Below are positions 45,535 through 63,147 of a stretch of DNA of 64,000 bases, piece after piece. The stretch is taken from the sequence record PP886230. One strand, 5' to 3'. The stretch's first letter is position 1; each line of letters opens with the position of its first letter. Source of the DNA: Escherichia phage vB_EcoM_E9.1. A model generated the notes under the pieces. The model was not told the DNA's origin. It ran no database searches and saw only the letters and a program-made list of their open reading frames with translations. The position numbers were made by a program, and so were the translations under genes.

Positions 45535-45593
45535 TTGCACCGTACTGATAAAAGCGTATAATGTTTTACATCGAGAGCGGGAACACTTCCCGC
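45535..45593 (+). promoter_or_regulatory. PeSL-like cassette: promoter plus 5' stem-loop
   Basis: TTGCAC - 16 nt - TATAAT gttttacatcgaga GCGGGAAcacTTCCCGC. Confidence 0.6.
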
Positions 45594-45617
45594 TACACTT
45601 TAAGAGAGATTAATACG

Positions 45618-45980
45618 ATGGCAACTCAAATCACCAAAATTATTGCTAACCTGGTTAACTTCCGCGACGAGATGAAAGATCTTCCGGCGGCGACGGTTAA
45701 AACTCACATTGACGCATACCGCGAACTGATTAAAATGCTGCCGCTTAAGCGTGAACAATACGCCGCTACCGTGATGCTTGATGCGATGATCCATAAGATG
45801 ATCGCCAGTGATTTGACGATGGTTTATCAGTATATGGGCGAAAATTTCGCGGTGTGTAGTAAGCCAGTACCAGGGATGGCAACAACTGAGGAATTGCACG
45901 GCTTAAACTTAAAACAAGATGCATGGGATAATATGCCTCGTTTCCTGGTATGGGCTGACAGTGGCAAAATTTACAAATAA
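45618..45980 (+). CDS. hypothetical protein (120 aa), GC-richer codon usage
   Basis: ATG after RBS taagagag; track ORF start is an ATG inside the -10 hexamer. Confidence 0.6.
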   Translation: MATQITKIIANLVNFRDEMKDLPAATVKTHIDAYRELIKMLPLKREQYAATVMLDAMIHKMIASDLTMVYQYMGENFAVCSKPVPGMATTEELHGLNLKQDAWDNMPRFLVWADSGKIYK

Positions 45981-45994
45981 GTTTAATAAAGTAC

Positions 45995-46053
45995 TTGCAA
46001 ACTATGTTTAATGGCGTATAATGTTTTACATCAGGTGGGGAATAGTTCCCCAC
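45995..46053 (+). promoter_or_regulatory. PeSL-like cassette
   Basis: TTGCAA .. TATAAT .. GTGGGGAAtagTTCCCCAC. Confidence 0.6.
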
Positions 46054-46075
46054 TATATAAGAGGATTAAAAAAAA

Positions 46076-46315
46076 ATGGCTAAATCAAAAATGTTCTTAG
46101 GTCACAAAAACAAAACTCATTGGAATGTAAGCCTGTGGATTAATAACGATGAGGGATTGTATCGGTTGGCCCTGGACTTTATTGCCGCCAATACTAATCG
46201 CAATGATGCGGCCCGTCATATGATGTTATTTTTAGAACAGACTGGACAAGATAAAACACCGGACGGATTCAAATATAGCACTACTGCGATCCGTGCGGCG
46301 ATGGTTGGAATGTAA
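46076..46315 (+). CDS. hypothetical protein (79 aa)
   Basis: promoter and 5' hairpin upstream; RBS gagga. Confidence 0.55.
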   Translation: MAKSKMFLGHKNKTHWNVSLWINNDEGLYRLALDFIAANTNRNDAARHMMLFLEQTGQDKTPDGFKYSTTAIRAAMVGM

Positions 46316-46403
46316 TAGAATAGAATTTATTTAAAGTACTATTGCACGGGGATAGTACTTTATAATAGTGTTTTATTCATACACCAACGATAAGGGCAAC
46401 AGC

Positions 46404-46670
46404 ATGAATATTAAGTATTTTGCGACGCGTGAACAAGCTCGGATCGCCGCTCGCCAGGACGGGGCAACGTTTAAAGATATGGGCGTACAATCGGAACGTG
46501 GTAAACGTTGGGCCATTGTAAAGCGTAGTACCGCCAGATCATTACAGTACTGGTTAGCGGCCTTAAAAAGTCCCGATAGTGTATCGCGTCGAGTGGTAGA
46601 AATAAAGCTCGACCGAAAGGGCAACCGCGTGACCGTGTACCGTACTAAAAAGATTGCAGTACTTGAATAA
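46404..46670 (+). CDS. hypothetical protein; paralog of 58621 ORF
   Basis: shared KYFATREQARIAAR..TFKDMG..DRKGNRVTVY motifs. Confidence 0.6.
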   Translation: MNIKYFATREQARIAARQDGATFKDMGVQSERGKRWAIVKRSTARSLQYWLAALKSPDSVSRRVVEIKLDRKGNRVTVYRTKKIAVLE

Positions 46671-46677
46671 AAAGTAC

Positions 46678-46736
46678 TTGCAAACTATGTTTAAAGGCGT
46701 ATAATGTTTTACATCGAGAGCGGGAACTCTTCCCGC
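46678..46736 (+). promoter_or_regulatory. PeSL-like cassette
   Basis: TTGCAA .. TATAAT .. GCGGGAActcTTCCCGC. Confidence 0.6.
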
Positions 46737-46757
46737 CTATAACCTGGAGTAATAAAA

Positions 46758-46988
46758 ATGACTAATATGTATATGACTGAAGTTAAAACCGTAAAAGATA
46801 CTACCACGAATAAAACTACTTACTTACAGCGGATCTGTGGTGTATGGCAACGTATCAGCAAATCAAAGTACTTTAAATTAACATCATATGCAAACCGTTC
46901 TGATTCATTCAGTACTGAAATAAAAGGTAATAAAGTACACCAATACGGCACTTATTATTATTACAGCCTGGACGCGATTGCAGTATAA
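46758..46988 (+). CDS. hypothetical protein (76 aa)
   Basis: promoter-hairpin cassette upstream; RBS ggag. Confidence 0.55.
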   Translation: MTNMYMTEVKTVKDTTTNKTTYLQRICGVWQRISKSKYFKLTSYANRSDSFSTEIKGNKVHQYGTYYYYSLDAIAV

Positions 46989-47237
46989 GCAGTTTACAAA
47001 TCTTTACAATTGCCGGTATTGACTTATTTTGTCAGTACTGGCATAATGTATTCATTGGCAGATAAGCCGTAGCCCATAGGGTGCGGGAGTGTATCTATAG
47101 AAAAATTAGTTTAGTATAGTTACAATTGTGCACCCGGTGGGTTAGCTGTTGTCATGGGGTATATTATGCCAGTACTTGATAATGCTGTCAATACTTTTTT
47201 TTACTATCCAGTACAGAAAACTATTTTTAAAAAGTAC

Positions 47238-47384
47238 TTGCAAACTATGTTTAAAGGCGTATAATGTTTTACATCAGGACGGGGGAACGAAATAAGTAAC
47301 TTCCCGTTAAGTAGCCCAGGAGTAAGGCACACGAAAAACTCCCCTGATAAAATAGTTTGACAAATGTTTTTAAAAGCGTATAAT
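47238..47384 (+). promoter_or_regulatory. dual-promoter module with conserved inter-promoter element (copy 1)
   Basis: TTGCAA..TATAAT (47238-47265), ~73-nt element caggacggggg...cccctg, then TTGACA..TATAAT (47357-47384). Confidence 0.55.
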
Positions 47385-47416
47385 ACTTACATCAACTACT
47401 GAATGAGGGTTACAAA

Positions 47417-61321: not shown

Positions 61322-61585
61322 ATGAACACTATCGAAATCACTATCAATGCACACGTATACGACAACGTAGTACTGCAAACTACTATGACCGCTAATGATA
61401 CCAGTACTTTGCGGAATACTGTTATTAGTGCCGTATGTGCCGCTATCGGTGATGTCGCCCTGGAAAATGCAAAACACGTAAACGATGGTTTCACTATGTG
61501 CAAACGTGATAACGCAAAACATATCATCGTGGAAGGTTACGGCGGTGTAGAATTTAATGTTTATATGAAAAAAGTACTTGCATAA
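61322..61585 (+). CDS. hypothetical protein (87 aa)
   Basis: cassette upstream; RBS aggag. Confidence 0.55.
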   Translation: MNTIEITINAHVYDNVVLQTTMTANDTSTLRNTVISAVCAAIGDVALENAKHVNDGFTMCKRDNAKHIIVEGYGGVEFNVYMKKVLA

Positions 61586-61634
61586 TAACTAAAACAAAGT
61601 ATAATGTTTTGCATAGGGGGAGATATCCTCCCCC
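61578..61634 (+). promoter_or_regulatory. PeSL-like cassette
   Basis: TTGCAT .. TATAAT .. GGGGGAGatatCCTCCCCC. Confidence 0.55.
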
Positions 61635-61652
61635 ACTAAAAGGAGTACTAAA

Positions 61653-61877
61653 ATGGCTAACTTTGATGAACTGATGCGGGAAGTAGCTAACCTGGCAGAA
61701 GAGAAGAAATCATTCGATTCTATCTATAACACCGCTCATCGTGATTCAGTACTGGCATGTAACCAGGATCAAAAAGATGAACTAATCGCCACCTATCATG
61801 AAGCATGGAAGTACTACCGACAATGGGAGAAAGAAGAAAGCGAGTCTACCATCAACGGCATCAATAATCTAATCTAA
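61653..61877 (+). CDS. hypothetical protein (74 aa)
   Basis: cassette upstream; RBS aaggag. Confidence 0.55.
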   Translation: MANFDELMREVANLAEEKKSFDSIYNTAHRDSVLACNQDQKDELIATYHEAWKYYRQWEKEESESTINGINNLI

Positions 61878-61953
61878 AAGTTTTATTTCAGTACTATTGA
61901 CATAGCTTGATAGTACTGATGTAATAACTTTACTAACTACAAGGGGAAACATA

Positions 61954-62211
61954 ATGGAACAGTTCACACAATATCGGGTAAATCCTCAAGCTATGGCCTA
62001 CGTAGAAGACCATAAAACGTTACCAGTACTGCAACCAGTTAAAGGCCATATCTATCGTGCAATGTCGTGGTGTGCGGCCCAGGATGGCTATAAAACCGTA
62101 GCCGTGGGTATGTACTGCGGTAATGGTGAATGGTTTGATCCAAATAATCCGGTAGCCATTGACAGTACTGAAAAAATGAAATGGGCCGACTACATCGAAG
62201 ATATTTCATAA
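61954..62211 (+). CDS. hypothetical protein (85 aa)
   Basis: promoter TTGACA..CTGATGTAAT upstream. Confidence 0.5.
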   Translation: MEQFTQYRVNPQAMAYVEDHKTLPVLQPVKGHIYRAMSWCAAQDGYKTVAVGMYCGNGEWFDPNNPVAIDSTEKMKWADYIEDIS

Positions 62212-62218
62212 AAACTAT

Positions 62219-62279
62219 TTGACAGTACTAACCAGTAATGTATAATGTTTTACATAGAGCGGGGGAATAGTTCTCCCGC
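62219..62279 (+). promoter_or_regulatory. PeSL-like cassette
   Basis: TTGACA .. TATAAT .. GCGGGGGAAtagTTCTCCCGC. Confidence 0.6.
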
Positions 62280-62301
62280 CAATAGTTTGGAGTTAAACAT
62301 T

Positions 62302-62502
62302 ATGTCTATCGCTATCTCCCTGGTTGAAGTACTGAAAGAAGCTAAAGCCAACCAGATCGACGTAAAGATCCAGGAACTACAAAACGGCTTAATCGGCTGT
62401 ACTTGTACCGCTGGTGGAGCGGCAGACTATCGAGAACACGAATCACTCGAATCACTGGTTCGGTATCTTTCCATGATCGTTGATGATTGGAGAATCATCT
62501 AA
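62302..62502 (+). CDS. hypothetical protein
   Basis: internal ATG (MSIAISLVEV) after RBS ggag. Confidence 0.5.
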   Translation: MSIAISLVEVLKEAKANQIDVKIQELQNGLIGCTCTAGGAADYREHESLESLVRYLSMIVDDWRII

Positions 62503-62518
62503 CAAAAAAGAATAAAAA

Positions 62519-62555
62519 AGGGATTGACTCCGGTCAGTCCCTTTGCTATTATATA
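62519..62555 (+). terminator. terminator/promoter hybrid element (second-half variant)
   Basis: same as 57268 copy. Confidence 0.55.
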
Positions 62556-62746
62556 CGCATAGACAAAAACTAGCCCACAGGGTGCATAGGTGTATCCAAA
62601 ATATATAGTTAATAACGGTGAGTAACTATCTGCTGGTGGAACTAAAACTATTAATAAAAAAGTATTGACAAAGTATATCAGTACTGCGATAATGTATCTC
62701 GTAGGGCGGCAATGGTGCGACGGCCCACAAAGTTAGGAGATTCAAA

Positions 62747-63079
62747 ATGACTACTTCAATCGCTATCGTTAAAGCTTTCATCCGTACTAATGTTTCCTCT
62801 GTATTCATCGACGGCCTCGACCGTAACGTAGAATACTCAATCATTATCGCACAAACGGCAAACGGTTCTCGGTACATCCTGAATGATAGTGAAGCAAATC
62901 ACTACTACTTCACTAAAGCCACTGGCTTTAAACGCATCGATGCTGATGTAGTATACGCTAAGATGAATAAGCTGGTAGATAAGATTAACGCTAAAGGTAC
63001 TATAGATTTACAGTACTGGACCGAAACCGATCCAGAGTATGGATCTCACCGCTACCTGAATCCAGGTATCAAAATGTAA
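62747..63079 (+). CDS. hypothetical protein (110 aa)
   Basis: promoter upstream; RBS aggag. Confidence 0.55.
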   Translation: MTTSIAIVKAFIRTNVSSVFIDGLDRNVEYSIIIAQTANGSRYILNDSEANHYYFTKATGFKRIDADVVYAKMNKLVDKINAKGTIDLQYWTETDPEYGSHRYLNPGIKM

Positions 63080-63086
63080 AAAGTAC

Positions 63087-63147
63087 TTGCATAGTACTTA
63101 GATTCATGTATAATGTTTTACATAGAGAGGGGGAAATGGTTCTCCCT
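63087..63147 (+). promoter_or_regulatory. PeSL-like cassette
   Basis: TTGCAT .. TATAAT .. GAGAGGGGGAAatggTTCTCCCTC. Confidence 0.6.

Follow-up and report, generated by a model that had tools for sequence, protein, structure and literature searches.

Repeated promoter and 5' hairpin cassettes in the terminal repeat of an Asteriusvirus-like jumbo coliphage

Composite promoter elements and the cassettes of the terminal repeat

Promoter early stem-loops (PeSLs) are composite promoter-terminator motifs of the T4-type phages RB49/phi1, PST/T4 and nt-1/KVP40 (Arbiol 2010 PMC2839356; Comeau 2014 PMC4122927). Here we compare them, and other described systems, with a repeated intergenic cassette of about 95 nt that joins a sigma-70 promoter to a hairpin in the 5' untranslated region (UTR) and is found toward the right end of a 64,000-nt stretch of Escherichia phage vB_EcoM_E9.1 (PP886230), the whole of which we refer to as the window. 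The stem-loop of a PeSL may take any of five positions (in the AT-rich tract, over the -35, in the gap separating -35 from -10, over the -10, or just before the start site) and is read as a terminator of upstream transcription, a role assayed in one case (PMC2839356, PMC4122927). One RB49 stem-loop cut downstream lacZ about as much as rrnB T1, and did so without a long U-tract (PMC2839356). PeSLs occupy hyperplastic regions in which they flank ORFans, coincide with insertions and deletions, and recombine with neighbouring copies to form encapsidated mini-circles (PMC2839356, PMC4122927); the junctions of the RB49 mini-circles fall in or beside the stem-loop (PMC2839356).

We identified 23 canonical cassettes (45,525-63,168) and three variants in the window, all of them on the plus strand. 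A purpose-written scan, which required TTGNNN, 16-18 nt of spacer, a hexamer resembling TATAAT and, beginning 6-18 nt further on, a hairpin with 5 bp or more, four or more of them G-C pairs, returned 26 sites on the plus strand and one on the minus strand, against a mean of 0.56 in 50 composition-preserving block shuffles. A covariance model built from the 23 canonical cassettes (R1) found 26 copies in the window at E<1e-6, on the plus strand only and all at or beyond 44,249; its two matches in the first 44 kb, at 839 and 15,482, were weak. The roughly 25 promoter and stem-loop cassettes put forward in the original prediction, which was made from the letters of the sequence, are thus real.

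The upstream part of the cassette is an A-rich tract ending in AAAGTAC, with AAAAAGTAC preceding the promoter, followed by a -35 element (TTGCAA, TTGCAT or TTGACA), a spacer that measures 16 nt in 22 of 23 cassettes, and TATAAT. The stretch between the -10 and the hairpin is conserved as (G/A)(T/G)TTTACAT(C/A). In the 23 canonical cassettes the hairpin starts 11-14 nt past the -10 and ends 15-24 nt (median 19) ahead of the ATG, with a stem of 8-9 bp and a minimum free energy (MFE) of -11 to -16 kcal/mol; it is followed by 5-8 nt, a Shine-Dalgarno (SD) sequence, 6-9 nt and the ATG, SD and ATG being present in all 23. The 5' arms are 96% purine and the 3' arms pyrimidine, G-C pairs outnumber C-G pairs by 236 to 30, and the 5' flank (AUC/AUA-(G/A)AG) and the start of the 5' arm (GGG(R)A) are conserved, while loops vary freely in sequence and in length (3-8 nt). 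Spacer subfamilies of the promoter correlate with hairpin types. In every one of 75 cassettes, taken from four lineages, the core helix begins 8-14 nt beyond the -10 (mode 12). Exact copies of GTTTTACAT number 17 (15 on the plus strand), all at 44.3-63.2 kb with none in the first 44 kb; it is the exact copies alone that cluster, as GTTTTACAT with one mismatch shows no enrichment across the whole window (50 versus 45 expected). The near-consensus promoter and UP-like tract, as well as the purine-rich 5' arm, were therefore correctly foreseen, but the spacer, put at 16 or 17 nt, is 16 nt in all but one cassette, and the TG abuts TATAAT directly and does not form a canonical extended -10.

Of the region's roughly 50 genes, 23 are preceded by a cassette, about 12 by a promoter lacking the hairpin and about 15 by neither, totals that are approximate because a crude gene caller mis-set several starts within cassettes. 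The expectation of a cassette ahead of almost every small gene consequently holds for about 23 genes and not for nearly all. Spurious open reading frames (ORFs) beginning MFYIE, attributed earlier to the ATG inside TATAATG, were confirmed by translation (ATG TTT TAC ATC GAG). Starts in the ORF list of the window at 45561, 48344, 50654, 52568, 52820 and 62245 lie inside TATAATG (MFYIE...) or inside a hairpin loop (aaATGg), and the public annotation of phage fEgEco12 has starts mis-set in the same two ways at 1689-2108 and 4467-4718; the true starts of such genes likely lie 30-60 nt downstream, behind the SD. The cassette-driven proteins received no function from Pfam (one domain of unknown function among 10) or from PHROGs (all 'unknown' bar one weak secondary match). 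Rfam gave no match in the whole window at gathering thresholds and, at E-value thresholds, three chance-level matches in the repeat described below, all of which lie off the cassettes.

In a mosaic pattern, the window shares 94-97% identity with jumbo coliphages of the genus Asteriusvirus (fEgEco12, SP27, 121Q, PBECO4 and others), by which measure the source phage is an Asteriusvirus (121Q/PBECO4-like), a Rak2-like jumbo coliphage and not a T4-type phage (Straboviridae). By blastn, 43894-64000 (plus strand) is colinear with positions 1-20,993 of fEgEco12, whose direct terminal repeats of 20,993 bp were confirmed experimentally (PMC13070987). The window ends where the repeat ends, and this repeat of about 20 kb contains all 23 cassettes and the three variants. 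The gene order ahead of it (minus-strand RCC1-like genes, then tightly packed 60-aa ORFs) is that of the fEgEco12 right end. Colinearity and gene order together indicate that the window is the right genome end, that 43894-64000 is the right copy of the direct terminal repeat, and that the whole finding lies within it.

This confinement is not peculiar to one phage. Across the whole fEgEco12 genome, each repeat copy carries 24 cassettes, and the 333 kb of unique DNA holds a single genuine one (the ortholog of the unit at 15,482 of the window) despite well over 100 strong sigma-70-like sites. Run over the window, over fEgEco12 (its left repeat copy and its unique DNA) and over the terminal repeats of three other phages, the covariance model gave 102 matches, all on the plus strand and all but four weak ones within terminal repeats; the restriction is likewise seen in fENko-Kae01, Muenster and EJP2. 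In distant relatives the terminal repeat was located via a conserved protein kinase. The kinase gene (59660-60244 in the window), which has no cassette of its own, is the most conserved terminal-repeat marker across Rak2-like phages, with 36-41% identity in jumbo phages of Klebsiella, Salmonella, Erwinia and Xanthomonas.

Set beside PeSLs, the cassettes are likewise composite intergenic units of about 100 nt with an AT-rich tract, a sigma-70 promoter, a G-run/C-run stem-loop, an SD and an ATG, and they too occur in many copies concentrated in plastic regions rich in small ORFans. Breakpoints of insertions, deletions and replacements between close relatives fall in the units, and a gene may lie between two copies in one phage where the other has a single copy. 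The PeSL stem-loop, however, is variable in position and lies in or upstream of the promoter, whereas the cassette hairpin is fixed in its own 5' UTR and has no U-tract. Moreover, the direct terminal repeat to which cassettes are confined has no counterpart in T4-type genomes, and the two kinds of unit show no sequence relationship, R1 having no match in 50 kb of RB49. In 21 upstream regions of RB49 (ORFs 185-228), the G-run/C-run stem lies in the gap separating -35 from -10 or spans the -10 and is never in the 5' UTR; an example is TTGACA GGGGGTCACCGATCCCC TATAAT, with the stem in the spacer, and the 5' UTRs are unstructured. The proposed match to PeSLs accordingly stands as to promoter, stem-loop, SD, ORFans and breakpoints but fails as to the U-tract and the stem-loop position, which here is in the gene's own transcript, while the T4-type context fails altogether, as the phage is Rak2-like and cassettes occur in Asteriusvirus, Alcyoneusvirus, the Eneladusvirus group and Vequintavirinae. 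Because they lack the architectural feature underlying the proposed PeSL mechanism, the cassettes are not strict PeSLs, although ingredients and evolutionary behaviour are shared. Their placement marks sites of small-gene swapping between phages, and their design is different from that of the known T4-type regulatory cassettes.

Hairpins that act as 5'-terminal stabilisers, such as those of the ompA 5' UTR and the T7 phi10 leader GGGAGACCACAACGGUUUCCC, start 0-2 nt from the 5' end; like the cassette hairpin they are short, GC-rich and placed ahead of an accessible SD, acting by structure and not sequence, and the T7 leader shares the purine-rich 5' arm and pyrimidine-rich 3' arm. They are single-gene features not known to be linked to gene shuffling, however, whereas the cassettes form a family of about 25 copies with 3-6 nt predicted to be unpaired. 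Repetitive extragenic palindromic (REP)-type and intercistronic stem-loops are stable, lack a U-tract and could block 3'-5' exonucleases, and in read-through transcripts the cassette hairpin would similarly stand about 60-70 nt past the preceding stop codon, but REP elements are not known to be coupled to promoters or to keep a fixed distance to a -10. In the passages of PMC6873191 covered here, the terminal redundancy of phage SPO1 is a host-takeover module of small, strongly expressed early genes. As far as those passages go, the likeness is a terminal repeat into which small early genes, about 25-50 of them, are crowded, with strong host-type promoters and ribosome sites, and the differences are that SPO1 is an unrelated phage of a Gram-positive host, that its genes are grouped in operons, and that a repeated promoter and 5'-hairpin cassette is not described there.

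Conservation of the hairpin and gene shuffling at cassettes

Klebsiella phage fENko-Kae01, with about 29% average nucleotide identity to fEgEco12, and E. coli phage EJP2 carry the same cassettes. In Klebsiella phage Muenster (Alcyoneusvirus), the promoter, the spacing and a hairpin persist while the stem sequences are unrelated (GGAGATTCCA/TGGAATCTCC, GGGAATGAA/TTCATTCCC, GGGGATAC/GTATCCCC and GGGGCAA/TTGCCCC). A BLAST search with one cassette matched Asteriusvirus, Alcyoneusvirus, the Salmonella 7t3/Munch group, Eneladusvirus-type phages of Erwinia, Serratia and Yersinia, and also the Vequintavirinae (rV5-like) coliphages of 140-150 kb. Among the latter, Escherichia phage A7_1 has a row of small genes with the same architecture and other stems (e.g. 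GCCGCA/TGCGGC and GGCGGGG/CCCCGCT), and within this row of native cassettes, at 2496-2888, stand two units of cassette plus small gene near-identical to Asteriusvirus ones, which points to horizontal exchange of such units between phage families. Sigma-70 promoters with UP elements are known from the early regions of CBB and GAP32, and promoters and terminators were previously reported for rV5 and PA5oct; in the literature searched, the coverage of which is incomplete, we found no report of the downstream hairpin, its restriction to the repeat, or PeSL-type shuffling for Rak2-like or rV5-like phages.

We give the most weight to the wholesale replacement of stems in Muenster and A7_1 and to the comparison of orthologs, above the covariation numbers. 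Cassettes were taken as orthologous when the gene behind them is the same, with an identity of at least 75%, and a pair entered the comparison only if a hairpin was detected in each copy; 27 of 52 such pairs are identical and 25 differ in sequence. Pairing persists through single changes (G-U to A-U at 48,318) and double ones (C-G to A-U at 62,241 relative to EJP2 and at 61,265 relative to fEgEco12; G-C to A-U also occurs), through free changes in loop sequence and length, and through complete swaps of hairpin type (52,564; 55,941). Free loops and exchangeable stems suggest a generic structural role for the hairpin and not a sequence-specific protein site.

Covariation was tested in a model-based alignment (A2) of 94 distinct copies; a MAFFT alignment (A1) was not in structural register. 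In A2, 86% of cells pair and seven of eight pairs have changed on both sides, with 66 compensatory cells compared with 27.7 +/- 4.3 in shuffles and a covariation score of 0.286 versus 0.161 that none of 500 shuffles reached and that dropped to 0.125 or less with partners slid. A slide of -3 nevertheless still pairs 83% of cells, as low-complexity G-run/C-run arms tolerate slippage, and the counts, raised artificially by relatedness among the copies and by fitting of the alignment to the structure, are supportive and not decisive.

Whether the symmetry is that of RNA or DNA was addressed by folding both strands of 78 unique sequences, from sites defined by promoter features alone, that reach -8 kcal/mol or lower on one strand or the other. 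The mean energy is lower for the sense strand (-12.35 kcal/mol, versus -11.51 for the antisense strand; Wilcoxon p = 2.5e-4), which leads by 2 kcal or more in 19 cases compared with four for the antisense strand. MFE helices contain 28 G-U pairs and no A-C mismatches. The sense bias, the G-U pairs and the single orientation of all copies favour an RNA hairpin over a DNA palindrome. Two linked claims of the original prediction are upheld by these comparisons: stems do differ between copies in a compensatory manner, as ortholog pairs and cross-genus replacement attest, and selection does appear to act on RNA structure and not DNA sequence, given that stems are replaced while the hairpin is kept and the sense strand folds better. 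An alignment and covariation analysis, the kind of check that it had suggested, gave support that is not decisive.

Changes of gene content also tend to fall at cassettes. A homology breakpoint was scored where a colinear block shared by the window with fEgEco12, SP27 or 121Q comes to an end; 19 of 40 such breakpoints are within cassettes, while 13% would be expected from the cassette share of the repeat (binomial p about 1e-7); some are shared by relatives, so they are not fully independent. For example, two cassettes enclose g013 in fEgEco12 and a single one stands in the window (50,665/50,698); a gene replacement begins exactly at the ATG after the cassette at 50,937; and the cassette at 60,682, present once in the window, occurs in fEgEco12 as two copies with g047 between them. 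Like PeSLs, the cassettes border ORFans within a plastic region and are found where indels and replacements have their breakpoints.

Possible roles of the hairpin

We consider it probable, with confidence that is moderate, that the cassettes are early-gene expression modules with a generic 5' mRNA hairpin and at the same time recombination modules. The A-rich tract and near-consensus sigma-70 promoter would be read by unmodified host RNA polymerase, presumably early, with transcription starting at the conserved C-A-T 7-8 nt past the -10 if the usual sigma-70 geometry applies. Such a start would place the hairpin at about +4/+7 to +25/+28 of a 45-50 nt leader, the first 25-30 nt of which are predicted to fold into an autonomous GC-rich hairpin of 8-9 bp, followed by an unstructured SD and the start codon of a small gene without known function. 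Acting as RNA, and by structure more than by sequence, the hairpin most likely has a generic function at the level of the mRNA: it would shield the 5' end from 5'-end-dependent decay (RppH/RNase E), and in read-through transcripts from upstream promoters it could serve the preceding gene as a barrier to 3' exonucleases, so that each small cistron would be bracketed by hairpins. The cassette itself, repeated about 25 times, would provide portable homology through which genes are inserted, deleted, replaced or transferred together with their own expression signals.

A role as generic mRNA stabiliser or insulator takes up somewhat under half of our belief in this reading; it accords with the confinement to the repeat, with the constant distance to the start site and with the freedom of stem and loop sequence. 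In the related jumbo phage PA5oct, host RNA polymerase transcribes the repeat genes highly and early (PMC7318152), and from this and from SPO1 (PMC6873191) we infer that the repeat genes are the earliest expressed and are probably read by the host polymerase. We regard as tentative, and as not likely, the further idea that the hairpin is a class mark of first-wave repeat transcripts, i.e. a generic 5' structural tag that would resist host 5'-end-dependent decay or a phage-induced shut-off nuclease, or be recognised by a phage factor, perhaps together with small structured RNA families confined to the same repeat.

Several points weigh against the stabilising expression module. Transcription start, timing and mRNA half-lives are matters of inference. 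If transcription begins at the A of CAT, 3-6 nt would be left unpaired at the 5' end, which the reading does not explain and which, according to classic work on ompA, is reportedly at the upper limit compatible with protection. Recombination among the copies, which are paralogs, deprives the covariation counts of independence. A strand-symmetric ungapped count gave 21 G-T versus 13 A-C at a background ratio of 1.55, which is not significant alone; this count is weak, since register slippage in G-runs makes false A-C calls, and two-strand folding was used in its place. About 12 hairpin-less promoters in the same repeat mean that the hairpin is not indispensable for early expression, and a pure stability role leaves the G-then-C arm polarity (236 versus 30) unexplained, although this may come from a purine-rich initial transcribed region, G-U tolerance or recognition of another kind.

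Masking of the SD, as in a riboregulator or RNA thermometer, was rejected, the hairpin being self-contained and the SD having an unpaired probability of 0.66 with the hairpin and 0.60 in hairpin-less leaders, according to partition-function folds of predicted leaders. An RNase III site was rejected as well, because RNase III needs roughly two helical turns and a stem of 8-9 bp is too short.

A protein may instead bind the RNA, the hairpin being a site for a phage or host RNA-binding protein (a RegA/RegB-type shut-off factor, a boxB-type antiterminator or a tag of self). Terminal-repeat restriction, which suggests a class-specific signal, the constant arm polarity, GGG(R)A start and conserved 5' flank, and the many small proteins without known function encoded in the repeat would all suit such a site, but we judge it unlikely: loops are free in sequence and length, stems are replaced wholesale between orthologs and genera, unlike sequence-recognised boxB or RegA-type sites, and no candidate binder was identified. 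Unlikely too, in our view, is that the cassettes are PeSLs in the strict sense, with a hairpin that terminates or attenuates transcription from the upstream gene and so insulates each gene as proposed for RB49/phi1. The ingredients match, RB49 stem-loops also lack long U-tracts even though one of them lowered lacZ like rrnB T1 (PMC2839356), and the repeat has only four canonical terminators (48,600; 49,719; 50,448; 59,039) for its roughly 50 genes. Yet a hairpin at about +5 to +28 of its own transcript would, if an efficient terminator, silence its own gene, and a terminator of upstream transcripts needs no fixed distance from a -10. A canonical intrinsic terminator was rejected on sequence: the first 8 nt past the stem average 1.5 T, none of the 23 hairpins has five or more where true terminators have 6-7, and a terminator scan flagged one of the 23. 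The phage does have canonical hairpin and T-run terminators elsewhere, some embedded in promoters.

Action at the level of DNA, as a palindromic operator of a dimeric repressor past the start site or as a cruciform or recombination site, appears very improbable. The inverted repeat is centred near +17, a classic operator position, breakpoints cluster in cassettes, and the RB49 PeSL mini-circle junctions lie in or next to the stem-loop (PMC2839356); against this, the half-site sequence is not conserved, G-T positions break DNA symmetry while keeping RNA pairing, with the sense strand folding better, all copies share one orientation relative to the promoter though a palindrome has none, and homologous recombination needs the repeated 95 nt and not a hairpin. 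We give equally little credence to a functionless hairpin carried as the passenger of one promoter family through duplication and gene conversion. That whole cassettes were copied as units is indicated by the correlation of spacer subfamilies with hairpin types, and hairpin-less promoters coexist in the same repeat, but pairing is kept through single and double substitutions, and it survives, with the distance from the -10 unchanged, where the whole stem has been replaced, both between genera and in Vequintavirinae.

Individual cassettes, neighbouring elements and significance

The individual cassettes, numbered from left to right, were delimited by scan, fold and covariance model. Hairpin AGCGGGAA/TTCCCGCT is found in cassette 1 (45525-45617, TTGCAC-16-TATAAT, ATG 45618, E 7e-11) and cassette 4 (48031-48120, ATG 48121); GGTGGGGAA/TTCCCCACT in cassette 2 (45985-46075, ATG 46076); and GCGGGAA/TTCCCGC in cassette 3 (46668-46757, ATG 46758) and cassette 10 (52532-52621, ATG 52622), the latter with a different hairpin type in its fEgEco12 and SP27 ortholog. 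Hairpin GGGGAGAA/TTCTCCCT of cassette 5 (48286-48373, ATG 48374) has an outer G-U pair that is A-U in the ortholog. Its 5' arm recurs in the form GGGGAGAA/TTCTCCCC in cassette 9 (50937-51023, ATG 51024, breakpoint 51026), cassette 11 (52762-52849, ATG 52850), which has the best model score (88.8 bits), cassette 13 (53793-53884, TTGACA-16-TATAAT, ATG 53885), cassette 15 (56529-56615, ATG 56616) and cassette 19 (60682-60774, ATG 60775), the one that is single here and present in two copies around the extra gene g047 in fEgEco12.

Cassette 6 (48754-48838, ATG 48839) has the hairpin TAGGGGGA/TTCCCCTG, cassette 7 (49071-49160, ATG 49161) AGGGGG..CCCCCT, cassette 8 (50618-50710, ATG 50711, homology breakpoint 50665/50698) GAGGGGGAA/TTCTCCTTC with two G-U pairs, cassette 12 (53358-53446, ATG 53447) AGGGGAAA/TTTCCCCT, and cassette 14 (55908-55992, TTGCAT-17-TATAGT, ATG 55993) AGGGGAA/TTCCCCT. 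Cassettes 16 (57837-57930, ATG 57931) and 17 (58107-58201, ATG 58202) share GAGGGGAA/TTCCCCTC, and cassette 18 (60376-60466, ATG 60467) has GAGGGGAA/TTCTCCCTC with one bulge. Hairpin GCGGGGGAA/TTCTCCCGC occurs in cassette 20 (61233-61321, ATG 61322), with one G-U pair and a C-G to A-U change in the ortholog, and in cassette 22 (62209-62301, ATG 62302), the EJP2 ortholog of which has GAGGGGGAA/TTCTCCCTC, the hairpin also of cassette 23 (63077-63168, ATG 63169). Cassette 21 (61568-61652, ATG 61653) has GGGGGAG/CTCCCCC. All of these, and the units that follow, are on the plus strand.

Two variants, at 47228-47352 (E 4e-9) and 57382-57505 (E 2e-7), combine a cassette-type promoter with a closed structure of about 76 nt (47273-47348 and 57427-57502) that is followed by a second promoter (47357 and 57508, respectively) in place of an ORF. 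In both, an outer stem AUCAGG...CCUGAU surrounds two hairpins; a related leader lies at 49830-49925, and the motif GACGGGG...AAGUA...ACGAAAAAC is common to these structures and present in fENko-Kae01 also. Their folding z-scores are only -1.4 and -2.2, and they are possible non-coding RNAs (ncRNAs). The first promoter of the repeat (44249-44317, TTGACA-16-TATAAT GTTTTACAT, E 8.5e-7) has only a weak and different hairpin. Outside the repeat, the sole cassette-like unit is at 15482-15555 (TTGACA-16-TATAAT, hairpin GGGGATGA/TCATCCCT, E 0.006), with its fEgEco12 ortholog at 324,293.

A second repeated unit resembles a small RNA gene family. It has a strong promoter, often with a terminator hairpin over the -35, then 21-28 nt (sometimes with a variable small hairpin), an invariant core (A/G)CCC-AYN-GGGUGC, about 5 nt and GTATCTAT. 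There are nine units per terminal repeat in both orientations, at about 47019-47100, 53228-53320, 54910-55000, 57266-57345, 60257-60345 and 62517-62600 on the plus strand and with cores at 48673, 47141 and 44986 on the minus strand, where no ORF follows them. The family has no Rfam match, is limited to the repeat in fEgEco12 bar one motif match at 98,595 (minus strand), and is conserved in fENko-Kae01, Muenster, EJP2 and 121Q. PA5oct has been reported to carry ncRNAs in its repeat (PMC7318152).

Composite terminator-promoter elements were also observed, in which the terminator stem contains the -35 and the T-run forms the spacer into the -10 (AAAGGGATTGACTCCGGTCAGTCCCTTT GCTATTAT; AAAAAGGGTTGACTTCGGTCAGCCCTTTTTGC TATAAT). 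Their hairpins lie at 53228-53255, 57266-57293, 60257-60284 and 62517-62544, with related copies upstream of the -10s at 6961, 17077, 18359 and 20617. On their sequence, these elements look like the strict PeSL architecture, coexisting with the cassettes whose hairpin is in the 5' UTR.

Among short words, AGTACT occurs 291 times in the window versus 21.6 expected (13-fold), most densely at 40-64 kb, and 1115 times versus 126 in the fEgEco12 genome; it is located in many promoter spacers and also inside genes. CAGTACTG occurs 63 times in the window versus 0.7 expected, and a 14-bp inverted repeat made of it lies at 44416-44449. Several GC-rich 6-bp palindromes are entirely absent. The first 1.6 kb of the repeat (43894-45520) has no convincing gene, contains minus-strand promoter-like sites, and includes a direct repeat of about 50 nt, GATTCAGTACTGAATAATAGTACTCCTATATAGAAAG, at about 45412-45510. 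Just before the repeat, at about 24000-43620, is an array of about a dozen paralogous minus-strand genes of roughly 380 aa each, which the fEgEco12 annotation calls chromosome condensation regulator or DNA condensation proteins. After it come about 18 closely packed plus-strand ORFs of roughly 60 aa without intergenic signals, in sharp contrast to the promoter-per-gene layout of the terminal repeat. No tRNAs were detected in the window.

Recognition of the cassette corrects start-codon errors in public annotations and supplies a testable anatomy for the expression of about 50 uncharacterised terminal-repeat genes in jumbo phages of the Rak2/121Q group, genes which, being presumably the first expressed, are prime candidates for host-takeover and anti-defence functions. 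The cassette is moreover a compact natural part that fits a promoter, a stabiliser-like leader and a ribosome site into about 95 nt. The units exchanged between phages, even across families, are cassettes of a gene together with its expression signals, and the idea behind PeSLs is thereby extended past the T4-type phages, with a different internal design. More generally, if the hairpin were indeed a class mark of the earliest transcripts, Rak2-like and rV5-like phages would share a previously unrecognised and horizontally mobile RNA-level layer of early control.

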